Shown here piece by piece: positions 52 through 15,524 of a DNA stretch of 16,597 nt; the first letter of the stretch is position 1, and every line of letters starts with the position of its first letter. A program made the translations under genes and the position numbers. Source of the stretch: a bacterium (GTDB lineage: Bacteria > Eisenbacteria > RBG-16-71-46); NCBI GenBank assembly GCA_043779265.1, contig JAYWEM010000165.1, positions 1-16,597 on the forward strand. Direction: 5' to 3'. Under the pieces are notes generated by a model. That model was not told where the DNA came from. It saw only the letters and a list, made by a program, of their open reading frames with translations, and ran no database searches.

Positions 52-783
52 TCAGACCTTGGTGACGGTTGCGGCCTGATTCCCCTTGGGCCCGGGCACG
101 ATATCGAACTCCACGCGATCCCCTTCGACCAGCGAACGGAACCCGTCCGAGGCGATGGCGGAGAAGTGGACGAAGATATCCTCGCCGGTGTCCGTGGCGA
201 TGAAACCGAAGCCCTTGGCGTCATTGAACCACTTCACGACGCCCTGCTGACGGCCCTCGCTGGAGACCGGTGCCTGCGGTCGCGGACGCTGTTCGCCGCC
301 GCCGCCGCCGCCGTGGCCACCGCCATGTCCGTGACCACCACGATCACCGCGCTCGCCGCCGCCGCCGGTGCCCTTCGAGGCGTTGAAGCAGTCGCGGCAG
401 AGCACTGGTCGGCCCGAGGTCGGCTGGAACGGCACCTGGGTCTCGATGCCGCACTGCGAGCAGATCGCGTCATGCATCGGACGCTGTCCACCGCCGCCGC
501 CGCCGTACCCGCCGCCTCCACCACCTCCGTAGCCACCGCCTCCACCACCACCGCCGTAGCCACGGCCACCACCTCCGTAGCCGCCACCGCCGCCACCGCC
601 ACCGTAGCCACCGCCACCACCGCCGCCGTCGCGGCCCTGCTTGCGTGCATCTCGGCAACCCTTGCAGCGCGTGGGCTGATTCGTCAGCCCGCGCTCACGG
701 TAGAAGGCCTGCTCACCTGAGGTGAACAGGAAGTCCTGCCCGCAATCCACACAGGTGATGCTCTTGTCCTCTCCCATTGACAT
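52..783 (-). CDS. Zinc-ribbon (zf-trcl-like) + CxxC-x17-CxxC + cold-shock domain fusion protein with Gly-rich linkers (243 aa)
   Basis: N-terminal [35 protein letters not shown], central [22 protein letters not shown], and C-terminal [27 protein letters not shown] with RNP1/RNP2. Start moved from 855 to the ATG at 783 (777 is an alternative) because GGAGG lies at 800-796. Confidence 0.92.
488..630 (-). repeat. Low-complexity (Gly)n-Tyr coding repeat (GGN-rich), five YGGGG units
   Basis: Plus strand reads ccgccgccg/ccaccgcc/ccgtagcc repeats, translating to [51 protein letters not shown]. Confidence 0.9.
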
Positions 784-839
784 GGCGCGCTGCTGCCTCC
801 GGTACGACGAGTGGGACACGGCTGGGCGAGAACACGAAT

Positions 840-865
840 GCCTCAGCAGGCACACCTGCTGAGGC
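840..865. other. Perfect 11-bp inverted repeat (hairpin) in the putative 5' UTR of the cold-shock fusion gene
   Basis: GCCTCAGCAGG-caca-CCTGCTGAGGC, with no U-tract on either side. Confidence 0.8.
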
Positions 866-980
866 GACTCAGGCGACGAGGCGTACGATCACGGCCATCA
901 GGTTCGACTCAGGATGCACAGGCGATCTCTGGCACGTCTTGCACTCGAGGGAACTGCCCACGGACGGTGCTGCGGAGGGA

Positions 981-1010
981 AGTATCCCGGCCCGTGGAGG
1001 CGAGAGTCAA
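981..1010 (-). promoter_or_regulatory. Putative sigma70 promoter for the cold-shock fusion gene
   Basis: Minus strand TTGACT (1010-1005) - N18 - GATACT (986-981); the -35 overlaps the upstream gene's stop codon. Confidence 0.55.
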
Positions 1011-1885
1011 TACGTGGTTTTCAGGCCCCGGACCGGCCCCGAATCGCCCCTGAAACGCTCCGGGCGGCACAGAGCGTGCAGGATCTCGGCCATCGTGAGG
1101 ACATCCAGCAGGTTGTGGTGGAACACCGGGACCAGCTTCCGGGCCTCTCCCTGCGCCACATAGTCATGGTAGAGCTGCGGCACCTCGGCACTCGGGACGT
1201 CGCCCGAGCGGTCCCGGCGGCAGATGTGCCGCTCGAGTGTCTGCAGCCGGCAGTCGGGAAGCGTCGCCTTCCAACGTCGCCTCGAGGCATGCAGCAGGTC
1301 GAGGTGCTGGGCCGGCAGCGTCAGGTCGACCAGGTGCGCGGTCGCGCGCGAGACCAGCTGCGGACCATCGAACGAGCGACCGTTGAACGTGACGAGGGCA
1401 TCGAAGCCCCGTGCCTGCTCGGCCACCGCGGCCACGAGCCCGGCCTCCTCGCCGTAGTGCCGCGCGAAATACTGGCGCAGCACGAAGTCCTCACCGTTCC
1501 AATGCATCGTGCCGGCGAGGAACACCATGCTGCCACCGAGTCCGCACGTCTCGAGGTCGAGGAACAGTGCGCGCTCGAGCCCGCCCGCGGCAATGGCCCG
1601 GAGGAGCGGCTCGCTCTCGGGCGGAGTCGGGAGACGGCCCCAGTGCGGCTTCGGCTTCTCGATCGCCGAGCGCAGTCGCTCATGTACGTACACCGCACCG
1701 TGGCGCTCATGACGCCACTCGCCGCCCGAGAGGAACTCCTCGACTCCGGAGTCCACGCCGCGTGTGACGGCGGCGCGTCGGCGCGAACGCGGCTTGGCCG
1801 CCTGGGCGGACTCGCTCGTTGCATCGCTCCCCGATCGGCGCTGCCGAACGAGTTCTCCGAGTCGGGAGCGAAGCCCGTCGCGCAT
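1007..1885 (-). CDS. mrfB: YprB/MrfB-family RNase H-like (RNase_H_2) DEDD 3'-5' exonuclease (292 aa)
   Basis: Motifs LFLDLETCGL, VTFNGRSFDGP, HLDLL, LQTLE and HHNLLDVL match the YprB RNase H-like family. An MrfA-type helicase lies in the same window. The symbol is a family-level call. Confidence 0.85.
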   Translation of the reverse strand: MRDGLRSRLGELVRQRRSGSDATSESAQAAKPRSRRRAAVTRGVDSGVEEFLSGGEWRHERHGAVYVHERLRSAIEKPKPHWGRLPTPPESEPLLRAIAAGGLERALFLDLETCGLGGSMVFLAGTMHWNGEDFVLRQYFARHYGEEAGLVAAVAEQARGFDALVTFNGRSFDGPQLVSRATAHLVDLTLPAQHLDLLHASRRRWKATLPDCRLQTLERHICRRDRSGDVPSAEVPQLYHDYVAQGEARKLVPVFHHNLLDVLTMAEILHALCRPERFRGDSGPVRGLKTTY

Positions 1886-1889
1886 CGCG

Positions 1890-2648
1890 CTACTCGACTC
1901 GCTCGCTCATCAGCACGAGTCGGCGGCTCTCGGTCGTGAGCGGCTCGCCCGCGATGCTCCCCGACACCTGGCGCACGGCGAAACCATGGCGCCGCAACAG
2001 CGCCGAGAGTTCCGCGCAAGTGTAGGCGCGCAGTGTGTACTCCTTGGTGACCTGGGGCCCGCCCGTGGGGTCGATCAGCATCTGTCGCGACATCACCCGC
2101 GAGGATTCCAGGTCGAGGGTGGTCTCCTCCATCAGCAGCGCACCGTCGGATCGCTGCTGCCACGTCCGTTGCTGCGGGTGCGTGAGCAGCCAATCGCGAT
2201 TCATCACGTCGAGCAGGAAGCGCCCCCTCGGCTCGAGCACGCCCGCCACCTGTTCGAGCACGAGTTCGTTGTCGTCATCGCTGAAGTAGCCGAACGAGGT
2301 GAAGTACGAGTACACGCCGTGGAATCGCCCGATGTCCTGGAGCGCGCGCATGTCGCCCGGCTTCCAGGTGACCTCGGCGCCCGCGCTCTGCGCGTCCTCC
2401 GCCGCGATCGCGAGGTACTTGGCGTTGAAGTCGAGGCCGGTGACGCGGAACCCGCGACGCGCCATCGCCACCGCATGACGTCCGAACCCGCAGGCCAGGT
2501 CGAGCACGTCGCCGCCTTGCGGCAGCGCCAGCGACCTCTCGATGAAATCGACCTCGGCGGCCGTGGTGGCCTCGGTGAACTGGGGCCGGTAGATGCGGAG
2601 ATAGTCGTCATCGAAGAATGCGACCGGCCATTCGGGCTGGGTCGACAT
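1890..2648 (-). CDS. Class I SAM-dependent methyltransferase (252 aa)
   Basis: Motif I VLDLACGFGRH, then VTGLDF, GDMR, FTSFGYF and LEPRGRFLLD. Start set at ATG 2648 (MSTQPEW) with GAGG upstream. The stop is 4 nt from the exonuclease start. Confidence 0.9.
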   Translation of the reverse strand: MSTQPEWPVAFFDDDYLRIYRPQFTEATTAAEVDFIERSLALPQGGDVLDLACGFGRHAVAMARRGFRVTGLDFNAKYLAIAAEDAQSAGAEVTWKPGDMRALQDIGRFHGVYSYFTSFGYFSDDDNELVLEQVAGVLEPRGRFLLDVMNRDWLLTHPQQRTWQQRSDGALLMEETTLDLESSRVMSRQMLIDPTGGPQVTKEYTLRAYTCAELSALLRRHGFAVRQVSGSIAGEPLTTESRRLVLMSERVE

Positions 2649-2852: not shown

Positions 2853-5800
2853 ATGCGTTTCGCTTCCGCCGTTCGCACGATCTGCCTCGCTCTGCTGACC
2901 GCGCTTCCCGTCAGCACTGCCCAGGCGCAGGTGCGCATCCAAGAGGTCCTGCTCGTCTGTGCCGACGGGTTCCCACAGGCGACCTTCGTCGAACTGTTGT
3001 GCACGAGCCCGACCCAACGTCTCGATTCATCCATCCGACTCCGCGTCTACAACTCGGACGGGTCGCTCCGGATGAATCTGGGGCTCTCCAACTCACCCCC
3101 CGGACCGCTCTGGGGTGAGGGGCGCACCTTCCTGTTCGCAAGCTCGGGCTTCGAGTTCACGACCGGTGTTCCGCCGGACGCGGTGATGGGGATGAGCCTT
3201 CCCGGAACCGCCGGATCGATCCGTGTCATCTGGGTTCATCCGATGACGGGAGTCGAGTCCGTACTCGACTGGCTCGACTACAGCCCGGGCGGACTCGCCC
3301 AGGCACCTCAACCTGGCCGCTCGCTCACGCGCGACGCATTCGGGCGCTGGACCGAGTCGGCCGATGTCTCACCGACCAACCTGGCGGGCGTTCAGGCGAG
3401 CGCGCCGCAGTGCTTCTCGATCACCCCGCCGCACGCGAGGATCCGCGAGGTCCAATGGCAGTGCCCGGAAGGGGGCCTGTCGAGCCAGTTCCTCGAACTG
3501 GCTCCGCGCGTGGGAGCCTCACGCTTCGATCGCCTCATCGGCGTACGTGCCACGGACCGCAATGGCACGCTCCTCTTCGAGCGCACCGACTTGTTCGGTA
3601 CGGAGACAGGTCGTGTCTGGGAGCCTGGCACGCCATGGCTCATGGGCCATGCGGCACTCCGCACGGCGCAAGGGGCAACGGCGGACATCGTGCTGCCCGT
3701 GGCGCTCGACACGCTCGCGGGACGGATCGACCTCTACTGGATGCGCACTCCGTCGGAGCGCATCGGGCTGGACTCGATTCTCTATGGCCCCGGGACCATC
3801 GAAGTGCCGCCGCCTGGCAGCTCGCTCCAGATCTCCGACGTCGGGTACACCGTCTCGGTGCCGTCGCCGCAGAACCACTCCCTCGCGCTGCTCACGGACC
3901 AGCGTTGCGGCCGGCCCGATCCGATCCCTCTCACCGTGTCGGAGTTCACGCTCCAGTGCCTCGACGGCGGAACCGGCCGCGCATTCGTCGAGGCGATCGG
4001 GCTCGGCGCCTCGCCCACCTGGGCGCGCGACGTGGTGCTCGAACTCCGCGGTCGCGGAGGCGAGTTGCTCGAACGCGTCGAGGACCCCTTCGCGGGCCTC
4101 GGCACGGCGCGCCTCGCGAGCGGCCAACACTGGCTGATCGGTTCTCCCACGTGGCGAAGCGCGAGCGGCCAGGGCCCCGACCACGTGCGGACGCTCAACC
4201 CCGACACGTTGTCGGGCGAGATCCGGGTGCTGGCCTGGGATCGACTCGGCCAGCTGACGCCTCAGCGCGTGATCCCCTACGGCACGATCCAACAGCCTCG
4301 ACCGGGGCCGGGTGGTTCTCTGGTCCTCTCGGGCGAGTCCCACGTGCCGCAGTCGCCGCCCACGCCCACGACGCGGTCGGGCGCGCTGCTCTCGAATCAC
4401 GACTGTCGCCGTCCGATCACGAGCCGCGTACGGATCTCCGAGTTCCAACTGATGTGCACTTCGGGCGAGGCGCGCGGTCAGTTCGTGGAGCTCATTGCCA
4501 TGAGTGAGGGCGAATCGTTCGACCCCGAACTCTCCGTCCGGATCTTCGATCGAAACGGAGTGCTCACGGGGCAGTACTCGGTCACGCCGCCCTCCCTGGG
4601 AAGTCCGTGGTCCGCGGGACGGCGCTGGCTGCTCGCTCGGCCGGAGTACGCGCTCGGGTTCGACCGGCGGCCCGACCGCGACCTCATGAGCCTGCTCGAT
4701 CCGGTCGCAGGACGGATCGATCTCGTTGGCCGCTCCGGCAGTGTCGCCGCGGTGCTCCATTCCGTGAGTTACGGCGGCACGTCGCCCGCGCCTCCACCCG
4801 GTGCCAGCCTGGAATCGCTCGATGGCGAGTCCTTCAGTGTCCAGATCGAGCCCAGCCCGACCAATCACGCAGGCGTGCGGTTGTCGGCGTCAGCGTGCCT
4901 TGGCCCGGCGCCGTCGCTGGGTCTCAGCGAGTTCCTGACGGGATGCGCCAGTGGCGAGTCGGTGAGCCTCGTCGAGCTGACGGTGTTCGGCTCGGGCGTT
5001 GCGGCGGACAACACGCTGCACCTGCGGACGTACGATGCGGCGGGAGATCTCCTCTGGGAGACACCGCTCACGCTCGGTGTTCCCAGCGAGCAGATGCTCG
5101 GCGTGGGCAGCCGCTGGCTGCTCGCCGACGACGCAGCGAGCACGCGACTCTCGCTGGTACGCGACCAGCAACTCCCGGTTGCGCTCGATCCCGCGGGCGG
5201 CCGACTCGCGATCGTGCGCCGCAACCTGCTCGGCTCGGTCACGCTGGACTCGGTCGCGTACGGCTCGGGTGCACTCCCAGCGCCGACCCCGGGGATCTCG
5301 CTGGCGCGCGCCGCGGGAGGGGCATGGGCTGCGTCGACTCCGGACTTCGCGAGCCGCAATGGAACGAGAGTCGCGAGTGTCGGCTGCTTCGATCAGTCGC
5401 TCGCCCAGGTCCGGCTGCAGTCGATCTCGCTCCAGTGCGCCGACGGCGGCACCGCGACCCAGTTCATCCATCTGATCTCAGAGGGCTCGGGGCTCGAGTT
5501 CTTCTCCGAATTGCTCATCCGCATCCTGGATCGCAATGGCGAGATCATCCGCGAGCTGACGCGCCCGTTCGGAGAATCCACGGGGCAACCGTGGCTCCAA
5601 GGAACGTCGTGGGCGATGACCGCGCATGACTACCGCAAACTCGGCTGTCTTCCCGCGCCCGATTTCACGTTCGAGCCCGAGCTCGATCTCGTGGCCGGTG
5701 CGGTGCAGGTCGTCGTGCGCTATCCCTCGCACGAGACCGTGCTCGACGAATTGCGCTATGGACTCACCGGCGAACCTCCGGCGCCCCCTCCCGGTCAGTC

Positions 5801-7961
5801 GCTCACCTGGAACGGCATCGCGTACGTGCTCGACGCATCGCCCGAGCTCTTCAACCGCCGCGACACCGATCTGCCGCTCCAGATCTGCGCCCCGGATGAA
5901 CGCATCGCCACGATCACCGCGGCGGGACTCGGCTGCGTGGGCGGCAATGCGCTCGGCCAGTTCATCGAGTTGCGCGCCGAGAACGCGACTCTCTACGACC
6001 GCAGGATGGCACTCGAGGTCTTCGACATCGCCGGGGCGCTGGTGTGGAGGAGCACCGACCTCGTTCTGTGGTTCGATGGCATGCCATGGCCCGCCGGTCG
6101 GCACCACCTCGTCGGGCACACCCTGCAGGCCGTCACGCTCGGCCGCTGCGTGGACTCGTACATGCCCGCGGTGCTTCCCGCCGGCGGCGGCGTGATCGAG
6201 TTGGTTGTGCGCGAGCCCCGTTGCCGCCGCGTGCTCAGTCGATTCGACTACCGTCCGCTCGCCGCCTCGACGCTCCCCGGGCAGGGGTGGAGGCGCATGT
6301 CGGATGGCTCCATCGCGATCGACCCGGCCCCGCGGCCCAAGTGCACGAGTGGCGACTCCACGTCGATCGTCCCCTGCTATGACCTGCCGACGACGAGTCG
6401 GGCCGTGGTCCAGGAGATGCTGCTGCAGGACGTCGCCGGTGCGACATCGTCCCAGTTCATCGAGTTGAGTTCGAGCGGCGCTGGCGAACTATTCGATGGC
6501 AACGTGGGCCTTCGCACGTTCGATCGAAACGGTGTTCTGCTGCAGGACGTGTTGCCCGAACAGCTCCCGCTCGCGAGCGGGCTCTGGCTGCCCGGGCGCA
6601 CGCGGCTGCTGGAACGAGGCACCTTCATCGGCGCGCCCTCGCTTCGACTGCTCGCGGCGCTCGACACGCTCGCCGGCGCGATCGAGGTCACGCACCGAAG
6701 CGGCGGCGCGACCTCCGTGCGCCAGCGGCTGACTTATGGCGCCGGCGGCGAGGTGACGGCACCGACGCTCGGGCGGTCGATCCAGCGCCTGCCGGATGGC
6801 GCGTATTCGAGCGATGCCTCGCCCAGTCCGCAGTCGGGTGACACCACGCGATTCTCGCCCGCGATCCACGCCGGTTGCGGCTCGGGCGTTCTCTACAACG
6901 CGTCCGGACTGGGTGTCGAGCACGCGGGCCTGCCTGTCTATGCGCGATCCCACGTGGGAATGCCCGTGACGCTCGGCTACGACCTGCAACGTGGCCGGGT
7001 CTGGGCGGACGTCGGTCCGGATCGCTCCGCGAGCGCGCTCGCGAGGGACTCGTTCATCGTGTGGGTGCCCGAGCCCGCACCCGCGACGATCGACGTGCTG
7101 GTGCGCGTGAGAGCCGAGATGACCATCGCGTGCGCGGGCATGGAGTGCGGACAGGGCTCGGTCACCGTGACCTGGGCCAGCAGCACCGTGTCCCACACGC
7201 TCCAGCGCACATCGGACGGCGGGCATCAGGTGGACTATATCCTCACAGTGGTTCCGAACGTGCCATTCCACCTGCAGTTCCTGGTCCAGACGCGATCGAC
7301 GCACTGTCTCGGCCCGTGGGCGTCGGTTCGCGGCATGGCACGCTGGGCGATCCATGATCTACCTGCGGAGGCTTCGGTCACCTCGTGTGCCGGCTACACG
7401 CCCGGCGACCCCACGGCGGCACAGCTCGCGCTCCTCTCGGCCGAGGCGTTCGCCGAGCGCAACGTACTGGCGTGGCAGGTCAGCACTTCTGCGGGCTTCG
7501 TCGCGCTGCTGGAGCGACGAGCGGCGGAGTCGGACTGGCTGCCGATCGCCGAACTCATGCCCGATGGCAGTGGCGTGCTGCGCTATGAGGACACCGATGT
7601 CCGCCCCGGAACGCGGCATGCGTACCGACTGCGCTGGACGGACCCGGATGTCGGCGTTCAGCTGACGCCCGAGGTCGTGCTCGTGACGCCGAGCGCGCTT
7701 CGATTCGCGCTGCATGCGATCCACCCGAATCCTGCGGTGGATGGTTTCGCCGTCGAACTCGAGCTGGCCGAGCCCGGCGACGTCGTGTTCGAGGTGCTCG
7801 ATATCGCGGGACGGCGCGTGATGCGTCACTCGACGAGGCGTGAAGCCGGGCGGCAGCAGATCCGGCTCGAAGGTTCGGCAGGATTGCCGACCGGCTCCTA
7901 CGTCGTGCGCGTCCGGCAGGGCGAACGCAGCGCGACCAAGCGCGTCATCGTCGCGCGCTGA
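2853..7961 (+). CDS. Large secreted protein: signal peptide, eight tandem ~165-aa lamin-tail-like repeats, one beta-rich domain, and a T9SS type A/FlgD-Ig-like C-terminal module (1702 aa)
   Basis: Signal peptide ending AQA|Q. Repeats begin xRIxE....C..G....QFxEL and end PxPGxSL...SPxN...C. C-terminus FALHAIHPNP..EVLDIAGRRV..LPTGSYVVRVRQG..TKRVIVAR. Confidence 0.85.
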   Translation: MRFASAVRTICLALLTALPVSTAQAQVRIQEVLLVCADGFPQATFVELLCTSPTQRLDSSIRLRVYNSDGSLRMNLGLSNSPPGPLWGEGRTFLFASSGFEFTTGVPPDAVMGMSLPGTAGSIRVIWVHPMTGVESVLDWLDYSPGGLAQAPQPGRSLTRDAFGRWTESADVSPTNLAGVQASAPQCFSITPPHARIREVQWQCPEGGLSSQFLELAPRVGASRFDRLIGVRATDRNGTLLFERTDLFGTETGRVWEPGTPWLMGHAALRTAQGATADIVLPVALDTLAGRIDLYWMRTPSERIGLDSILYGPGTIEVPPPGSSLQISDVGYTVSVPSPQNHSLALLTDQRCGRPDPIPLTVSEFTLQCLDGGTGRAFVEAIGLGASPTWARDVVLELRGRGGELLERVEDPFAGLGTARLASGQHWLIGSPTWRSASGQGPDHVRTLNPDTLSGEIRVLAWDRLGQLTPQRVIPYGTIQQPRPGPGGSLVLSGESHVPQSPPTPTTRSGALLSNHDCRRPITSRVRISEFQLMCTSGEARGQFVELIAMSEGESFDPELSVRIFDRNGVLTGQYSVTPPSLGSPWSAGRRWLLARPEYALGFDRRPDRDLMSLLDPVAGRIDLVGRSGSVAAVLHSVSYGGTSPAPPPGASLESLDGESFSVQIEPSPTNHAGVRLSASACLGPAPSLGLSEFLTGCASGESVSLVELTVFGSGVAADNTLHLRTYDAAGDLLWETPLTLGVPSEQMLGVGSRWLLADDAASTRLSLVRDQQLPVALDPAGGRLAIVRRNLLGSVTLDSVAYGSGALPAPTPGISLARAAGGAWAASTPDFASRNGTRVASVGCFDQSLAQVRLQSISLQCADGGTATQFIHLISEGSGLEFFSELLIRILDRNGEIIRELTRPFGESTGQPWLQGTSWAMTAHDYRKLGCLPAPDFTFEPELDLVAGAVQVVVRYPSHETVLDELRYGLTGEPPAPPPGQSLTWNGIAYVLDASPELFNRRDTDLPLQICAPDERIATITAAGLGCVGGNALGQFIELRAENATLYDRRMALEVFDIAGALVWRSTDLVLWFDGMPWPAGRHHLVGHTLQAVTLGRCVDSYMPAVLPAGGGVIELVVREPRCRRVLSRFDYRPLAASTLPGQGWRRMSDGSIAIDPAPRPKCTSGDSTSIVPCYDLPTTSRAVVQEMLLQDVAGATSSQFIELSSSGAGELFDGNVGLRTFDRNGVLLQDVLPEQLPLASGLWLPGRTRLLERGTFIGAPSLRLLAALDTLAGAIEVTHRSGGATSVRQRLTYGAGGEVTAPTLGRSIQRLPDGAYSSDASPSPQSGDTTRFSPAIHAGCGSGVLYNASGLGVEHAGLPVYARSHVGMPVTLGYDLQRGRVWADVGPDRSASALARDSFIVWVPEPAPATIDVLVRVRAEMTIACAGMECGQGSVTVTWASSTVSHTLQRTSDGGHQVDYILTVVPNVPFHLQFLVQTRSTHCLGPWASVRGMARWAIHDLPAEASVTSCAGYTPGDPTAAQLALLSAEAFAERNVLAWQVSTSAGFVALLERRAAESDWLPIAELMPDGSGVLRYEDTDVRPGTRHAYRLRWTDPDVGVQLTPEVVLVTPSALRFALHAIHPNPAVDGFAVELELAEPGDVVFEVLDIAGRRVMRHSTRREAGRQQIRLEGSAGLPTGSYVVRVRQGERSATKRVIVAR
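2931..6870 (+). repeat. Eight diverged tandem protein-domain repeats (~495 nt period)
   Basis: Repeat starts at 2931, 3435, 3930, 4428, 4917, 5409, 5907 and 6402 (163-168 aa apart). Shared motifs: QFxEL, xRxxDRNG, W..G..WL, LD..AG.I, LD...YG, PxPGxSL. Confidence 0.88.
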
Positions 7962-7970
7962 GCCGATTCG

Positions 7971-10385
7971 CTACCCCACCCACCGCCGCAGCATCGTCCG
8001 GGCCGCCTCCTTGGTGGGGATCTCACGCGCCTTCTTGATGGTGTCCCAGTCCTGCTGCTGAGCGGGGTTCAGCACCGGCAGACCGACGCAGGCCGGGCAG
8101 CCGTCGCCGCACGGGCAGCCTTCCAGGTGCGTGAGCGCGGCGTCGGCCAGTTCGTCGAGTCGTGAGTAGCCCTGCTCGGCGAATCCGAGTCCGCCGGGAT
8201 AGCGATCGAACAGGAACAGGGCCGGACGCCCCAGATTCGAGGAGTCGAGCGTGCCCTGCACATCCATCGGGTCGCACATCGACAGCAGCGGCAGTAGTTG
8301 CACGAACAGATTCCGCACCCCCCCCAGGGCCTCCCACGGGTTCAGCCCGGCAGCGGCGACGGCGCCCCAAGCCGCTTCACTCGGCGCGAACCACAACCCG
8401 GCCGTCTCGAGCGACAACCTCGGCAGCTCGAGCGGGTGATGTCCGATCGAGTCGAGCGAGCGATAGCGGATCTTCTTGAACGCCACCGTCTGCCAGCTGT
8501 ACGTGAGCTCGCCGAATCGCACGCTCTCGCCTCGCCAGTCGCGGCTCTGCAGTTCTGTGCGCACGCGCACGTTCGTCTCGAGGACGGGCTGCGTGTAGTA
8601 GTCGACCTCGCGCGGTTCGACAGTGGCGATCTTCTGCTCGAGGTCGAGCTTGCGCACCCAGTGGCTCTGTCCCTCGTGCAGGTAGATCGCCTCCGGGTAC
8701 ACGAGCTCCAGACCCGAGATCGCATCGACCGTACCCACCACGGCGTTGTTCCGCGTGCCATCGACGATGGTGTACGTGTCATCGCCCATGTTGCGCAGCG
8801 AGACCTTGCGCTGGGGGAACTCCGTCCGCGCCCAGTAGGTGCGTCCATCGATCGTCCGCGTCTCGCCCGCCTCCTCGAGTGCGGCGAGGATCGCGGGCAT
8901 CTGCGGACCGAATGCGGCCTCGTCCGCTTCGGAGAGCGGCAGCTCGTAGGCGGCGCACGCCAACTGCTGCGCCAGGAGGTACGGATTGTGCGGATCGATG
9001 CATGCCGCCTCGGGACTGCGCCCGAAGAACCACGACGGCCGACGCATCAGGTACTGGTCCACAGTGTCGTTGTACGCCACCAGGACGACGATGCTGGGCC
9101 GACCGCTGCGCCCGGCGCGTCCCGCCTGCTGCCAGATGCTTGCGAGCGTGGGGGCGGCGCCGATCAGGATCGCGGCATCCAAGCCGCCCACGTCGATCCC
9201 CAACTCGAGCGCGTTGGTGCTGACGACGCCCCGAAGCTCCCCGGAGAACAGCGCGCGTTCGATGGCGCGACGTTCCTCGGGCAGATAGCCGCCGCGGTAG
9301 GGCTTGATGCGATCGGCCAACGGCGGCAGGTGCATCGCCTCGAGTCCGAGGTTCGCATCGGCGGGCAGTCGCGCCTTGGATCGCTGGAGTTGTTCGCGCG
9401 CATAGCGGAACACCAGCTCGGCCGAGACCCGCGACTTGGTGAACGCGATCGCCTGGCCGCCTCGCTCGATCAAACCGGCCAGCAGCTGGCAGCCCTCGAC
9501 GTTGCTCGAACGCCGTTCGACGCGCGTCTCGTCGCGATAGGGCGGGTTCCAGAACACGAAGTGCTTCTCGCCCCTCGGCGCGCCATCGTCGTCCACCACC
9601 TGCACGGCTCGGCCGAGCAGCCCGGCGGCCAGTTCTCCCGGATTGCGGATGGTGGCGCTGCAGAACACCGTGCGGTACTCGCCGCCATAGTGCCGCACGA
9701 GCCGATCGAGACGGCGCAACACGTTCGAGACGTGACTGCCGAAGATGCCGCGATAGGCGTGCAGCTCGTCGACCACGACGTAGCGCAGATTGCGCAGGAA
9801 GCGCGCCCATCTCGCGTGCTGCGGCAGGATGCCGGCGTGCAGCATGTCGGGATTCGACAGGATCACGTTGGCGCGCTCGCGCAACTGCCTTCTGGTGCTC
9901 GGCGCCGTGTCGCCGTCATAGACGCCCGCCTCGAGCGAGGCGCGCACGCGTTCGTCGGCCGAGGCCACACGCGTCAGACTCTTCAACTGGTCCTGCGCCA
10001 GGGCCTTGGTCGGGAACAGGTAGAGCGCGGTGGCGCCGGGCGCTTCCAGCAGGGCCTCGAGCGTCGGGAGTTGGAAGCAGAGGCTCTTGCCGCTCGCAGT
10101 GCCCGTCACGACGACGGTGTCGTGTCCGGCGCGCAGCGACTCGATCGAGCGAACCTGGTGCGTGTAGAGCCGGTCGATGCCGCGCGCCGAGAGCGCGGCG
10201 GCGAGCGCCGGGTGGAGTCCCGGCAACAGCTCGCCGAAACGCGCGGGTCGCGCCGCGAGCGTCTCCCAATGGACCAGGGCGCCTCGGTTGTCGCGGCGCT
10301 CGGAGTACTCCGCGAGCCAGCGGACCAGACCGTCGTCCGCCTCCGACTCATCCCGCTTCGAGAACCGCCCCGGCGCGACCCTCAT
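7971..10385 (-). CDS. mrfA: MrfA/YprA (Hrq1/SftH-like) DExH-box helicase with C-terminal DUF1998 zinc-binding domain (804 aa)
   Basis: Motifs LYTHQ, TGTASGKS (I), PTKALAQDQ (Ia), YDGDT, NPDMLH, DELH (II), SAT (III), TNALELGIDVG (V), QQAGRAGR (VI), and C-terminal CD..LFDRYPGGLGF..CPCGDGCPAC. Start set at ATG 10385 because the longer ORF overlaps the neighbouring gene. The symbol is a family-level call. Confidence 0.93.
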   Translation of the reverse strand: MRVAPGRFSKRDESEADDGLVRWLAEYSERRDNRGALVHWETLAARPARFGELLPGLHPALAAALSARGIDRLYTHQVRSIESLRAGHDTVVVTGTASGKSLCFQLPTLEALLEAPGATALYLFPTKALAQDQLKSLTRVASADERVRASLEAGVYDGDTAPSTRRQLRERANVILSNPDMLHAGILPQHARWARFLRNLRYVVVDELHAYRGIFGSHVSNVLRRLDRLVRHYGGEYRTVFCSATIRNPGELAAGLLGRAVQVVDDDGAPRGEKHFVFWNPPYRDETRVERRSSNVEGCQLLAGLIERGGQAIAFTKSRVSAELVFRYAREQLQRSKARLPADANLGLEAMHLPPLADRIKPYRGGYLPEERRAIERALFSGELRGVVSTNALELGIDVGGLDAAILIGAAPTLASIWQQAGRAGRSGRPSIVVLVAYNDTVDQYLMRRPSWFFGRSPEAACIDPHNPYLLAQQLACAAYELPLSEADEAAFGPQMPAILAALEEAGETRTIDGRTYWARTEFPQRKVSLRNMGDDTYTIVDGTRNNAVVGTVDAISGLELVYPEAIYLHEGQSHWVRKLDLEQKIATVEPREVDYYTQPVLETNVRVRTELQSRDWRGESVRFGELTYSWQTVAFKKIRYRSLDSIGHHPLELPRLSLETAGLWFAPSEAAWGAVAAAGLNPWEALGGVRNLFVQLLPLLSMCDPMDVQGTLDSSNLGRPALFLFDRYPGGLGFAEQGYSRLDELADAALTHLEGCPCGDGCPACVGLPVLNPAQQQDWDTIKKAREIPTKEAARTMLRRWVG

Positions 10386-10479: not shown

Positions 10480-13119
10480 TCAGGGCAGTGCGATCGCACG
10501 GCGCACGTGGCTGGCACCGAGCTGGGAGAGCCGCAGCCAGTGGATCCCCCGTGCCGCCTCCGCAGTCGCGAACTCCAGTTGCTGACGGCCCCGTCGACCA
10601 TCGAACTCGCTGCTCACGCTCCGCCGCCCCGCGACATCGAACACCTCGATTCTGGCGGGTGCGTGGAACGGCAGGTCAAGCGTCAATCGCCAGCGACCGT
10701 CGCTCGAGGACACCGCCGAGGCGATTCCCACGCCGGCGATCCGAGGTCGCGTGACTTGGATCACGGAGCTGACATGCTCCTCGCCGCCTTGGCGTACCCG
10801 AATCCGATACTCGATGCGATCGTGATCGCCCGGCTCCGCATCGAAGAGGACCACCTCGTGCTCCCCGTTCACCAGAGCATCGGCCACATGAGTCCATGCG
10901 GCTTCTGGCCGGGCGCGGCGCTCTAGAGAAGCAGTCGCTGTCGCGCCACCAGACAGCCGCCACGAGAGTCTGATGCCGGCTCCCACGAACTCCGTGCTCA
11001 GATGTGACGCCACGATGGCAGTGGGGCCGAAGCGGTCGAACGCGAGTAGTTCGAGCAGGCTCGCCTGCGCGAAGCTGTGCGGCTGGGTGTGGGGATGCGA
11101 CGCGAGGCCTCCGTGTACGAGGAGGCGATTCGAGGAAGGCTGAACGAACAGACTCGGCTCGGCGCGAGCAAGATGCGGGCTGGTTGGGGAGAGCCTCTTC
11201 CAGGTCGGCACGGGGGGCTCTAGGTCGAGCTGCCAGAAGTCGGTGCTCACCGTGCCGTAAGTCGAGGGACGTCCGGCATGGAAGATCAAAGCGCGCCGCC
11301 CTTCATCGAACGCCATCGATGCCTGCACGAGCGGCACTGAAGCAACGGTCGTGGCGAGTGGAGACCACCGATTGGAGTCGGAGAACGCGAGCTGGTGAAG
11401 CGTGCCGTCGGAACGCAGCACGATCATCCGGTCGCCAGCCGCATCGAAGGCCGCCTGGAGTGTCGTGTAGCCACCCACGATGGGGATGCTCACCCCTGGG
11501 GCCGAGCCGATTGTCGGCAGGGCGGTCCATTGGAGCGAGTCTCCTGCTGTCTCCAGCGTCCAGGTCTGCGCGGTGTCGAGGCTCCCGTAGCCGCAGGCGA
11601 CGACAAGTCGAGCTCGTGCGGGGTCGAAGACCTGAGCGTGGAAGTATCGCTCGAGGCGCGGGCTGGACTTGACGGGGAGCTTCGTCCAGGTCGGAGTGGG
11701 AAGCAGTCGAAGCTCCCAGACGTCGAATTGCGCGATCCTCACGATGTTGCGGCCTGCTCCGTGCCCGGAGCCGCACCCTAGATCGAAGCGCGCCTCGCCG
11801 CCGAACAACAGGTGCCGCCCCGATTCGGCATCCGTCGCGAACCGTGCTCCCGTGCTTCGGACCGGACGAGACGAGGGGGTCCCGACGAGCATCTGGATCG
11901 AGCCCGTGCTGGGTGCGCCCGGAAGCAGGGTGAGTTGGTCCTGATCCACCTCGATCGCATCCACCAGCGATTGATAGCAGCCGTTCACGAGTTCGATAGT
12001 ATGCCCCGCCCAGATGATGCTCTGGCCCGTGACTGGGTCCTGTGCGAGCGCCGCTCCGCGGGTATGGGCAGGCCATGGCAAGGAAGGCGACTCATAGAGA
12101 CGCCGGCTGACATGGGAGTCGATGTCGACTGCGAAGATGTCGCTGGAGTATGGAGCGACTGGATCGAGCGGCGTGCCGAAGGCGATGATGAGTTCTCTCC
12201 GCCCAGCGTCGAGCCCGAGCACGGGCAGTCGCCGTCGACCCGGCACATCGCCCGTGAGCGTCACGGACTCCCACCTCAGAGTAGGCGAGAAGTGGAGGAT
12301 CCAGAGTCTGGAGTCCTGGTCGCCGAACAGGAACGCGCGGTCATTGGCTTCGTCCAAGACCATGCGAGCGCCCCTCCGAACACCGGGCGCCTCGCCATTC
12401 GCCAACAGTCTCACCCATCGGGGCTCGGGGCTGAACTCCACCGCCCACAACTCATCCGAGGCCTGAACCTCGTATCCACCGTAGAAGACGATGCGGTCCC
12501 GCGAGCGATCGAACACGCTCGCAGTGACTTCGTAACGATAGCTCGGTGGAATGCCCAGCATGGGAAGCACCTGCCACGGGCCCGAGAGGTCGGCGGGCGT
12601 GACATGGACCTGATTGGGGTCAGAGTAGAGGTTCGGCAGGTTCACGAGCACGAATCGATCGCGTGTCGGGTCGTAGGCTGCAGGACCTCGGTGGATGATC
12701 GGCGCATCCCGGTGCTGGTAGAACCGCGGCAGACCGTCGAGACTCGAGTGGTACCCCATGTACGATGAGAAGAAGGCGGCGGGACTCGGGAAGTAGCCCC
12801 CAGCAGTCAACACGCGACGTCGCGTGGGATCGAGCACCGAGGTGGTTCCATCGAGCATGAGCGCGCCGCCGAGCGGCAGGTGGTCCCAATCGCCGGTTTC
12901 GATGTGGTAGCGCCAGAATTCGTGGCGATCGTCGAAGTTGCCGCTCAGCCAGATGCTTCGCGTGGCAGCGTCATAGAATCCGGCATCCGCCAGCGAGATG
13001 GGCGGCGGACCGAGTCGGCGCCATGTGCCGTCCTGCGCGGAGGCCGGCTCGGAATCCGCGCCGATCACCGTCGCGAGGACATAGACTCCGAGCCGCAGCC
13101 CATGGAGAAGGGAACGCAT
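10480..13119 (-). CDS. Secreted Kelch-like double beta-propeller protein with T9SS/FlgD-Ig-like C-terminal module (879 aa)
   Basis: GGAGG precedes ATG 13119; signal peptide ends ASA|Q. About 12 repeats of the type xD..RxRxxxxGG...D.W......W. C-terminus IEVFDVAGRR..ARGIHWLRLSQLG..RRAIALP. Confidence 0.82.
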   Translation of the reverse strand: MRSLLHGLRLGVYVLATVIGADSEPASAQDGTWRRLGPPPISLADAGFYDAATRSIWLSGNFDDRHEFWRYHIETGDWDHLPLGGALMLDGTTSVLDPTRRRVLTAGGYFPSPAAFFSSYMGYHSSLDGLPRFYQHRDAPIIHRGPAAYDPTRDRFVLVNLPNLYSDPNQVHVTPADLSGPWQVLPMLGIPPSYRYEVTASVFDRSRDRIVFYGGYEVQASDELWAVEFSPEPRWVRLLANGEAPGVRRGARMVLDEANDRAFLFGDQDSRLWILHFSPTLRWESVTLTGDVPGRRRLPVLGLDAGRRELIIAFGTPLDPVAPYSSDIFAVDIDSHVSRRLYESPSLPWPAHTRGAALAQDPVTGQSIIWAGHTIELVNGCYQSLVDAIEVDQDQLTLLPGAPSTGSIQMLVGTPSSRPVRSTGARFATDAESGRHLLFGGEARFDLGCGSGHGAGRNIVRIAQFDVWELRLLPTPTWTKLPVKSSPRLERYFHAQVFDPARARLVVACGYGSLDTAQTWTLETAGDSLQWTALPTIGSAPGVSIPIVGGYTTLQAAFDAAGDRMIVLRSDGTLHQLAFSDSNRWSPLATTVASVPLVQASMAFDEGRRALIFHAGRPSTYGTVSTDFWQLDLEPPVPTWKRLSPTSPHLARAEPSLFVQPSSNRLLVHGGLASHPHTQPHSFAQASLLELLAFDRFGPTAIVASHLSTEFVGAGIRLSWRLSGGATATASLERRARPEAAWTHVADALVNGEHEVVLFDAEPGDHDRIEYRIRVRQGGEEHVSSVIQVTRPRIAGVGIASAVSSSDGRWRLTLDLPFHAPARIEVFDVAGRRSVSSEFDGRRGRQQLEFATAEAARGIHWLRLSQLGASHVRRAIALP

Positions 13120-13230
13120 GCAGGCCTCCGGAGGGTTGGTCGGAGTGCGAGCCATCTCCGACTCGACACTCAAGAGTCTATGCGGCTGACCGAGTCGAAA
13201 CCACTGCCGATCCGAGCCCGAAGCACTTTG

Positions 13231-14295
13231 TTACTCGATGGAGCGTTGGGTCTGCTCGAAGCCGCTCACCACCCAGTCGCCATCGCGGGCTTGGAAACTC
13301 ACGCGGAACGCGTCCTGTCCGCCTCGGAAGAACACCATCTGGAGCCCACTCGGATCGGTGCCCGGGGCCACTCGCCACCGCCCCTTGCCGCCCTCGTCCC
13401 AATCGAATCGACGGGCGAAGTCGACGAGTGCCGGATCGGTCACATGACGCGACGCCCGCACGTGGTCGCCAGCGATGAGCGCTGCGATCAACGAGGTGAA
13501 GGCCGAATAGGGCGACGGGACCAACTGGTCGTCGATCCGCCGGAAGCCCTTGCTGCCCCAGACGAACCGCGCCTCGCGATCGACGTGCGGACACGAGGAG
13601 CACTCATCGAAGTAGGGCGTCGGCTTGAAGGTGCGCGTGGTCAGATCCACTCCGTGATCCCCGGCCACGAACTCGCCCGCGCCGGTTCCGCCCAGAGAAT
13701 CGCCGGGGAGCAGCTGCAACAGGTCCCAGCGCCCGCCCGCCGCTCGCTTCCAGACCATGAGCGTCGGCTCGGTGCCCGAACCCACGCGTCGATCGAAGAG
13801 TGCCGCCGTCTGAGCCGTGTCAGTCGGCACGCCATCGTTGCCGAAACCGCGTGTCGCCACCTCGACCAGATGCAGTCCGCCACCCTCGATCGTCTGCAGC
13901 CGGACATCGTCGCCCTCGCGCCAGAACAGATAGGGCCAGGTACGCCCCAGCGCCTCGATCCGCGAGAACAGGTTGATGACGAGAGCCCGATCGGAGCCCG
14001 CGACCTCGCCGCCCAGGCCCAACGAATCGAGCACGCCCTGCACTCGCTCGCGCCACGGAGCGGTCGGGCGCAGTCGGAGCGCCGCGTGGACGACGCGTGC
14101 GCTGGCGGCGGCGGCCTGGTCGTCGGCGCCCTCCTCCCACTTCCTCACGGCCGTGCGCGCGAGCACGGTGAAGGAGTCCGGAGCGCTGGCGAGCGAATCG
14201 GCCTCGGGCGGGATCAACTGCGGCGTGCGGTCACAAGCCGTGATCGAGACGCACGCGAGCAGGCACAGGCCGAGCAGCGTGATGCGGCGACTCAT
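13231..14295 (-). CDS. Putative lipoprotein of unknown function with a CxxCPH motif (354 aa); paralog of the upstream gene
   Basis: MSRRITLLGLCLLACVSITA|C lipobox-like signal. Its ATG overlaps the upstream TGA (ATGA at 14295-14292). Purine-rich GAAGGAAG lies upstream. Confidence 0.8.
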   Translation of the reverse strand: MSRRITLLGLCLLACVSITACDRTPQLIPPEADSLASAPDSFTVLARTAVRKWEEGADDQAAAASARVVHAALRLRPTAPWRERVQGVLDSLGLGGEVAGSDRALVINLFSRIEALGRTWPYLFWREGDDVRLQTIEGGGLHLVEVATRGFGNDGVPTDTAQTAALFDRRVGSGTEPTLMVWKRAAGGRWDLLQLLPGDSLGGTGAGEFVAGDHGVDLTTRTFKPTPYFDECSSCPHVDREARFVWGSKGFRRIDDQLVPSPYSAFTSLIAALIAGDHVRASRHVTDPALVDFARRFDWDEGGKGRWRVAPGTDPSGLQMVFFRGGQDAFRVSFQARDGDWVVSGFEQTQRSIE

Positions 14296-15446
14296 GGTCC
14301 CACTTCCTTCGTCGTACGCGCCACCACCACGGGTTTCCAATCGCGGATCACCCAACGGCCATCCCGGATGGTGAAGTGGAAGATCCAACGCTTGAATCCG
14401 CCATCGCCCAGCACTCGCAACGCGAGCCACTCCGGCCATGGCTGCTGCTCCTCGCCGTACTCGACGGTCCAGGCGCCGCGCTGTTTCGATCGACCCCAGC
14501 CGGCATCGAGCGCCTCGCTCAAGCGACCGGGATCGGCGAGCAATCGGCCCGCGGACTCGCGATCGCCCGCGGCCAGCGTCACCGCGAACAGGCGCAACGT
14601 CGCGATGGGGCCGGGGAGGATGCGGGCATCGTGCGCCACGAAGCCCTCGGGACGCTCGGTGTAGATGCGCTCTTGGATCAGCGCCGGCGTCCCGCGCTCG
14701 AGCACGAGGAAGGAGTCCGCCTCGATCTTCTGGAAGTTGATGAGTTCGGGGTGACCATCGTTGTTGACGTCGCCGAAGGTCACGTCGCCCGGCTCGCCCA
14801 GATCGGGGCCATGCCCTTCGTACTGAACGAGATTCCAGAAATAGCCGTCGGGACTGAGCCTCAGGTACTTGAAGCCGAAACGGGCCGGAACGGAGCGCTG
14901 CGTGTACACGATCGCCGCGCCATAGGGCCCCGTCGCACGGCCGGTGTACCACGCCCGCAGGCGCGGCCGGATCCCGGCGGGGAAGCTGACGCCCTGCATG
15001 CGCAGATCGTTGCCGCGGTACCACATCAGGTAGCCGACAGCGCCCGAGCCGGGCCGATACGGATTGCGGACCATGACGAACACGATGCTCGGCTGCAGCG
15101 GATCGTTCACGACATCGACGTCGGCTCCCAGCGAATCGAGCGTCGCTTCGATGATGGGGGCCTGCAGCATATTGCTGCGGCCGAGCAGGCGGAGCAGCCG
15201 CCTCGCTCCCTGCGCGACCAGTTCGAACGCCTGGATATCGCGAGCGGAGAGTGAATCGGTCCGCTGCTCCTGGAACCGCACCTTGGCCGAACTCACGAAG
15301 CGGACGACGGAGTCCGAGGCGGCGGGCGTCCAGGGCTGCACGGCCTGCGCGAGCGCCGAAGTCGGCGCGAGCATCGACGCGGTCGACAACGCGAAGCCGA
15401 CGACGGCGAACGCGAGGAGCGCGTGGGATCGGGGTCGGTGGGTCAT
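14292..15446 (-). CDS. Putative exported protein of unknown function (384 aa) with one DxNxDG (FG-GAP/VCBS-like) motif; paralog of the downstream lipoprotein
   Basis: Signal peptide MTHRPRSHALLAFAVVGFALSTASMLAPTSALA|Q and motif FGDVNNDGHPELI. Start uncertain (15446, 15458 or 15461). Confidence 0.78.
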   Translation of the reverse strand: MTHRPRSHALLAFAVVGFALSTASMLAPTSALAQAVQPWTPAASDSVVRFVSSAKVRFQEQRTDSLSARDIQAFELVAQGARRLLRLLGRSNMLQAPIIEATLDSLGADVDVVNDPLQPSIVFVMVRNPYRPGSGAVGYLMWYRGNDLRMQGVSFPAGIRPRLRAWYTGRATGPYGAAIVYTQRSVPARFGFKYLRLSPDGYFWNLVQYEGHGPDLGEPGDVTFGDVNNDGHPELINFQKIEADSFLVLERGTPALIQERIYTERPEGFVAHDARILPGPIATLRLFAVTLAAGDRESAGRLLADPGRLSEALDAGWGRSKQRGAWTVEYGEEQQPWPEWLALRVLGDGGFKRWIFHFTIRDGRWVIRDWKPVVVARTTKEVGP

Positions 15447-15456
15447 GGCACGGACC

Positions 15457-15484
15457 ATCATCGTGGCGCGGCCGAGGCGGTCAA
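15457..15484 (-). promoter_or_regulatory. Possible sigma70 promoter for the paralog pair
   Basis: Minus strand TTGACC (15484-15479) - N16 - GATGAT (15462-15457), 10 nt before ATG 15446; no clear SD, so a near-leaderless transcript is possible. Confidence 0.3.
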
Positions 15485-15524
15485 GCAGCAAGCCCACCCC
15501 GCACGGATTCCTCACGGGTTCTTG

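Follow-up and report, generated by a model that had tools for sequence, protein, structure and literature searches.

Bacterial cold-shock proteins (Csps), such as CspA of Escherichia coli (1mjc), CspB of Bacillus subtilis, and CspA of Staphylococcus aureus, mostly stand alone as single domains of approximately 70 amino acids. Plant cold-shock domain proteins (CSDPs), such as AtGRP2, and animal Lin28 combine a cold-shock domain (CSD) with 2 small zinc modules, and the spacers of AtGRP2 are described as Gly-rich, with Arg and Tyr (PMC11602973). The same pair of zinc modules that concerns us here, zf_Tbcl and zf_Tbcl_2, makes up small proteins annotated by NCBI as "zinc-ribbon domain containing protein", in which the modules are connected by a flexible, often Gly-rich linker. 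Among small proteins with the CxxC-x17-CxxC pattern, 2 from M. mazei have been reported to bind Zn on the basis of ICP-MS, and a role in transcription has been suggested for such proteins (PMC12704099).

Here, we describe a gene that joins these parts in a single protein. The window analyzed, by which we mean the whole stretch of 16,597 nt, is an entire contig from an uncultured lineage of Eisenbacteria. On its minus strand, an open reading frame (52–783) runs from an ATG at 783–781 to a TGA at 54–52 and encodes 243 amino acids, and the frame on the plus strand is closed. The CSD of this protein is 55–60% identical to those of the 3 Csps named above, with an rmsd of 1.4–1.9 Å, and a long structured 5′ leader is common to this gene and the Csps. 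Unlike the stand-alone Csps, however, the protein carries a 179-residue N-terminal extension with 2 zinc modules; unlike the small zinc proteins, which have the same modules in the same order and lack a CSD, it is fused to one. The downstream neighbor of the gene lies beyond the contig end.

Architecture of the three-module protein

The initial annotation had read the 243-residue frame as 2 Cys4 zinc modules followed by a complete carboxyl-terminal CSD. Pfam, TIGR04272, sequence motifs, and homologs all agreed with this layout, and all 3 Pfam matches exceeded their curated cut-offs. The first module (residues 5–51; 631–771, minus strand, as for all features of the gene) is a zf_Tbcl domain (PF13451) with the pattern CxxC-x25-CxxC, matched at an E-value of 1.4e-20 and 73.4 bits against a cut-off of 24. 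It is followed by linker 1 (484–630), a degenerate tandem repeat of 49 residues with GYG repeats and 84% Gly. The second module (residues 101–137; 373–483) is a zf_Tbcl_2 domain (PF23477/TIGR04272) with the pattern CxxC-x17-CxxC, matched by Pfam at 3.8e-18 and 65.3 bits (cut-off 27) and by TIGR04272 at 67.5 bits (cut-off 36). Linker 2 (247–372), rich in Gly, His, Arg, and Pro and, like linker 1, predicted to be disordered, leads into the CSD (residues 180–242; 58–246), which PF00313 matched at 2.1e-27 and 95.2 bits (cut-off 27). Support for the start at 783 comes from a Shine-Dalgarno sequence, GGAGG, at 796–800, which is nearly invariant in the leader alignment, and from the aligned start codons of relatives.

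A protein search gave 1,799 matches among 8,000 scored candidates, and the best 120 of these homologs all carry the 3 domains in the order ZF1-ZF2-CSD. Within this set, the x25 spacing of zf_Tbcl was kept in 118 proteins and the x17 spacing of zf_Tbcl_2 in 120; RNP1, RNP2, and the KWF Trp motif of the CSD were found in 119, 120, and 118, respectively, and all 3 are intact in the window protein (KGFGFI, IFVHF, and KWF). From what is established for such domains, the CSD is almost certain to bind and melt pyrimidine-rich RNA through the aromatic residues of RNP1 and RNP2, and each Cys4 module is predicted with high confidence to bind Zn. The net charge is small and positive, at +1 and +2 for the zinc modules and approximately +1 for the whole protein. 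The protein scores under every NCBIfam Csp equivalog cut-off. Its genome encodes a single PF13451 gene, along with 3 clear csp domains and one weak match.

AlphaFold2 returned 3 confident modules (block pLDDT 75–96) separated by linkers with pLDDT below 50, without any packing between the domains (pTM 0.34). The modeled CSD is a five-stranded OB fold that superposes on E. coli CspA (1mjc) with an rmsd of 1.4 Å over 69 columns and a Foldseek TM-score of 0.91 by target. Both zinc modules were modeled as a beta-hairpin plus a helix. The label "zinc ribbon" used at first was therefore right as to the 4 cysteines and wrong as to the fold, as the models show no three-stranded ribbon and Pfam describes a "probable treble clef"; on these models, the modules are probably treble-clef-like. 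Structure searches with the zinc pair found nothing significant among solved structures (VIA Z at most 3.7; Foldseek E no lower than 0.5), including a weak and non-significant likeness to C2H2 fingers, and a comparison of the 2 modules with each other detected no likeness.

The proposal that this protein had converged on the Lin28/CSDP design found no support in that form. The order of domains is reversed, with an N-terminal CSD in Lin28 and the plant CSDPs and a carboxyl-terminal one in the best 120 homologs of the window protein. None of these 120 contains the CCHC knuckle C-x2-C-x4-H-x4-C, nor a CCCH motif, and both Lin28 and AtGRP2 match the window protein over the CSD only (residues 176–239 for the Lin28 chains). 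With Cys4 modules that are probably treble-clef-like and bear no relation to CCHC knuckles, and with Gly-rich linkers that fused relatives can do without, the likeness is a loose analogy only, not homology.

The Gly-rich linkers that had been seen as part of the architecture are indeed prominent in the window copy, but they are no constant feature of it. Among the best 120 homologs, the first linker measures 13–49 residues (median 20) and the second 24–101, with varying composition, and some fused relatives have only 7–15% Gly in their linkers. Gly-rich linkers are also present in zinc-pair proteins that are not fused.

A conserved hairpin in the leader

The gene is preceded by a leader of about 190 nt (784–975, minus strand), which alignment showed to be conserved within the family, and by a sigma-70-type promoter (TTGACT-18 nt-GATACT; 981–1010, minus strand), of which one was found against 0.1 expected in shuffled sequences. 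The promoter pattern also matched in 56 related loci, placing a like promoter 180–214 nt upstream of the start. A leader profile built without the window's own row recovered positions 965–831 at an E-value of 8.5e-12, and the next match in the genome was at 0.0037; the profile thus found no strong second occurrence in the window genome, and no regulon. Rfam held no match to the leader.

Conservation is limited to a GC-rich, terminator-like hairpin (840–865, minus strand) that is followed by an imperfect U tract and forms a candidate attenuator. Its pair probabilities are close to 1. In 30 leaders from family f1, to which the window genome belongs, 93% of cells are paired and 7 of the 10 pairs show two-sided changes, a covariation that none of 500 shuffles equaled and that also exceeded slid controls. 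The leader as a whole folds no better than shuffled sequence (z 0.45), and one leader motif yielded no consistent hairpin. Using a criterion chosen after the leaders had been seen, a terminator-like element was detected 30–72 nt before the start in 26 of 30 leaders from f1 and 14 of 24 from a related family, f7, versus 11 of 749 other starts in the window genome.

The U tract behind the window hairpin is weak (5 of 10), and in the window leader no antiterminator fold competes with the hairpin (a penalty of approximately 26 kcal/mol). Read-through would consequently depend on a trans-acting factor or on leakiness of the terminator, or else the leader would act as a small RNA or stability element. 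The leaders of f7 (e.g., L112:1294–1491) have an added long-range stem, as well as a pairing of the hairpin loop with the sequence just before the Shine-Dalgarno, 95% of which is paired. This loop pairing can form a pseudoknot or an alternative fold that masks the Shine-Dalgarno, and it is absent from Rfam.

Taken in its context, the hairpin is probably a regulatory attenuator or stability element. There are precedents among the Csps: S. aureus CspA is reported to autoregulate through a hairpin in its 5′ UTR (PMC5815144), and B. subtilis CspB and CspD to change terminator read-through in both directions (PMC8307031). We hypothesize that the fusion gene is autoregulated via its leader; that the window protein itself acts on the hairpin is a tentative suggestion, to which we give less than even odds. 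The same arrangement of promoter and then leader hairpin is seen at a stand-alone csp paralog elsewhere in the window genome (L002:1800–1860), where the hairpin comes with 7 consecutive T, well upstream of the start codon.

Distribution and origin of the fusion

PF13451 was found in 76 of 121 genomes of the phylum, including 42 of the 44 other members of f1 and all 26 of f7. The phylum-level tallies in this study take in a few unpublished genomes, none of whose loci underlies a claim made here. Of the 43 f1 genomes with a PF13451 match, 35 were examined: 29 carry the intact fusion, 2 have a copy cut by contig ends, and 4 have a gene broken by a stop or frameshift and directly followed by the CSD. 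One genome of the sister family f2 carries the fused form as well. In f7, a separate csp gene starts 42–79 nt behind the stop of the zf-zf gene in all 26 genomes, mostly with a TTG start codon and with a Shine-Dalgarno in the spacer, the position of which matches linker 2 of the fusion. The same split form was found in both testable genomes of f3. The chance of a csp gene being so placed is approximately 0.0005 per locus, for loci that, as kin, are not independent. No csp gene was present within 2.1–2.7 kb of the zinc-pair gene in families f5 and f14.

Because these sister families hold the parts as a two-gene operon, the fusion probably derives from such an operon. The simplest reading, which we think likely from this context, is a single event that removed the stop and spacer between zf-zf and csp. 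A careful tree of the zinc core (72 rows and 80 columns, with half of the f7 rows and one fifth of the outside rows) contains a branch, supported at 92/88 and not starred, that separates the fused forms, and joins the split forms of f3 and f7 at 97/84. Quick trees disagree with one another: one places the f7 clade, with its split genes, within the fused forms and another does not, so that fission of a fused gene could also have given rise to the split form. The CSD tree is poorly resolved and too weak to decide the origin. A full-length locus from a Ca. Eisenbacteria MAG falls within the family of the window genome in the trees, in line with a probable Eisenbacteria host.

Second zinc-pair copies in 2 genomes (L123 in G095 and L139 in G074) resemble those of Chloroflexota, with which L139 also groups in a quick tree; they possibly stem from bin contamination or transfer, and were left out of the family counts.

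Directly upstream of the fusion gene lies an RNase_H_2 gene (1007–1885), which we take to be YprB/MrfB-like, and which occupies this place in 34 of 36 f1 loci. A gene for an MrfA-type DEAD/Zn helicase (7971–10385) is found near the RNase_H_2 gene in relatives, and is separated from it here by a methyltransferase gene and a gene of 5.1 kb. The latter (2853–7961) encodes a predicted secreted protein of 1,702 residues with internal repeats, in which a C-terminal T9SS-type sorting domain is the sole domain recognized. Further along, a Kelch-like beta-propeller and 2 adjacent, apparently related secreted proteins are encoded (10480–13173, 13231–14376, and 14292–15515), with no or weak Pfam matches.

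Beyond this phylum, the zinc pair is widespread. Its profile is matched by 14,859 representatives at 50% identity (E ≤ 0.001), and of the genomes sampled, 121 of 151 from Chloroflexota and 67 of 101 from Bacillota encode it. Zinc modules were also found fused to SigH-like, ClpN, IF-3, and HEAT proteins, partners that speak for roles other than RNA handling. In several Clostridia-like sequences (P0142–P0160), a SigH-like sigma factor runs in frame into the zinc-pair protein. Other proteins (P0278, P0292, P0300, P0305, P0334, and P0277) carry 3 to 5 tandem zf_Tbcl_2 or 4 zf_Tbcl modules with spacers rich in Arg, Gly, and Asp, some with Lys-rich tails. Up to 7 zinc-pair paralogs per genome were seen in Chloroflexota (L158–L227 and L287–L328), many with short leaders that appear self-complementary from end to end and with protein tails whose last residues are RW or RY. 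Apparent fusions with ribosomal S2 and L10 are, by inspection only, probable metagenome mis-joins, and 3 unannotated matches in phage records were uninformative.

Proposed RNA handling by the zinc modules and alternative readings

The most likely function of the protein, in our view, is that of an RNA chaperone helped by its zinc modules and controlled through its leader, with a probability of roughly 0.58. The Csp-type CSD would be the unit that chaperones single-stranded RNA, tethered as beads on a string to a two-finger zinc module, which in turn would help to engage RNA or RNA–protein particles. From its context, it is reasonably likely that the zinc pair makes contact with RNA or with particles associated with the ribosome. 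In 96 unfused proteins from 3 phyla, the positions conserved in at least 70% comprise the 8 cysteines, 9 basic, and 9 aromatic positions.

Part of this context comes from algae, mainly Chlorophyta and Haptophyta, in which Gly/RGG-rich linkers tie the same first zinc module to finger types known for binding RNA; in the one sequence group examined, these proteins have neither a CSD nor zf_Tbcl_2. The ESM Atlas holds algal clusters of zf_Tbcl with CCCH (440 members, score 0.90) and of zf_Tbcl with CCHC and CCCH (109 members, score 0.78), the second being a lead, and Pfam confirmed one algal protein of the CCCH/CCHC type, with RGG-type linkers.

A second part comes from Bacillota, where the 31 best-scoring loci, not a random sample, were studied. 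The raiA motif RNA (RF03072), an abundant noncoding RNA of unknown function, ends 31–41 nt before the start of the unfused zinc-pair gene in 8 of the 27 loci scanned with Rfam, 7 above the Rfam threshold (L156, L236, L237, L238, L240, L242, and L243) and 1, a short form, below it (L239). With 63 of 115 neighboring ORFs scanned, hpf was found directly after the zinc-pair gene in 3 loci, one locus was ordered zf-csp-hpf, and secA and prfB were also among the neighbors. At the window locus, no covariance-model match to RF03072 was obtained, nor was there one genome-wide, where control genomes also gave none.

The neighborhood table of Soares and colleagues, covering 887 genomes, agrees with this placement: all 36 entries for "zinc-ribbon domain containing" proteins, counted by annotation name and not by PF13451, are at +1 of the raiA RNA (PMC10861870, supplement file 3), often preceding an ABC transporter, csp, and raiA. 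These 36 make up 4% of the genomes, many being close kin, and a position within the conserved comF-hpf-secA region could explain the +1 placement. The main text of that paper does not contain the word "zinc" and names no candidate protein partner from synteny. In other reports, KhpA and KhpB are given as partners of the raiA RNA (PMC12968392), and synteny is regarded as a poor guide (PMC11706538).

Together with the split zf-zf/csp operon, the algal CCCH/CCHC fusions and the neighborhood of raiA RNA and hpf suggest that these zinc fingers may handle RNA. To this extent, the initial view of the fusion as a Rosetta-stone hint of RNA binding by orphan zinc modules gained support. The link to csp is lineage-limited. 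In Chloroflexota, 1 of 141 zinc-pair genes has a csp gene nearby; in Bacillota this holds for 1 of 31 loci, and among metagenome loci for 3 of 24, 2 of these being near-copies. The reversed order, csp then zf-zf, occurs in one other lineage.

The Bacillota neighbors hpf/raiA, secA, and prfB would also fit a zinc pair that is a protein-interaction module, docking for example on the ribosome, a hibernation factor, or RNA polymerase, and delivering the CSD to its site without binding RNA itself. The modest net charge of the modules, the transcription role suggested in PMC12704099, and the fusions of zinc modules to IF-3, SigH-like sigma factors, and an RNAP alpha-CTD-like domain are in line with such a role. 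The SigH fusions, however, look like read-through, since a sequence resembling a leftover RBS still precedes their zf start and they group with short, unfused members. Moreover, the invariant Arg and aromatic residues, and the CCCH/CCHC fingers and RGG-type linkers that accompany zf_Tbcl in algae, fit contact with RNA. We therefore consider this explanation unlikely, while giving it some weight.

The fusion could also be a near-neutral merger of 2 co-regulated stress or stationary-phase genes, which fixed their expression at 1:1 and left the halves independent. Such a merger would agree with a split operon that f7 has kept in every genome, linkers that vary freely in length and composition, a model without packing between domains, and the scarcity of csp near most zf-zf genes elsewhere. 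It accounts less well for the retention of the fusion through a whole family and in one sister family, or for the reversed csp-zf-zf pair in another lineage. A separate Atlas cluster of Chloroflexota proteins with zf_Tbcl and a CSD (67 members) also speaks against it, as a lead only: this cluster was not recovered in the 10 genomes searched in full, and no three-domain match was among the best 150 rows from 401 Chloroflexota genomes, with at most 7 candidates scored per genome. On balance, a near-neutral merger seems improbable.

Treble-clef fingers of other families bind DNA, and with the sigma-factor fusions this could point to a DNA-binding transcription regulator whose fingers read DNA and whose CSD binds ssDNA or nascent RNA; the likeness to C2H2 fingers is non-significant, however, and the strongest context is RNA-related, making this very unlikely. 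Finally, a spurious frame or an assembly chimera over the GGC repeats, to which the repetitive nature of linker 1 and its rank as the longest first linker among the best 120 homologs might have pointed, can be dismissed, as a single Logan contig covers window positions 209–1900, reaching through both linkers into the CSD, with 0 differences in either of 2 runs that are possible sources of the window DNA (the remaining CSD lies on an overlapping Logan contig), the identical protein is present on 2 contigs, from NCBI and ENA, and the best 120 homologs share its layout.

The three-module protein is thus a genuine fusion, kept throughout a family of uncultured bacteria, and a variant of the Csp family. 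The architecture is catalogued, in 4 auto-named clusters of the ESM Atlas with the same domain set, yet undescribed in the literature searched, which took in few subscription papers. We also considered a wider reading, which we regard as doubtful: zf_Tbcl and zf_Tbcl_2 might form a widespread RNA-binding module that partners a structured RNA transcribed from directly upstream of the module's gene, this RNA being the leader in Eisenbacteria, where the fused CSD would be the melting unit, and the raiA motif RNA in some Bacillota.

Neither of the 2 zinc modules, common as they are, has been assigned a function, and the fusion with a CSD makes their function directly testable. Should the outcome be negative, a lineage-specific domain fusion remains. 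If the zinc fingers do bind RNA, they would constitute a new bacterial RNA-binding module, and the window protein a bacterial multidomain Csp analogous to the plant CSDPs, while in a subset of Bacillota the zinc pair would enter consideration as a partner of the raiA motif RNA.
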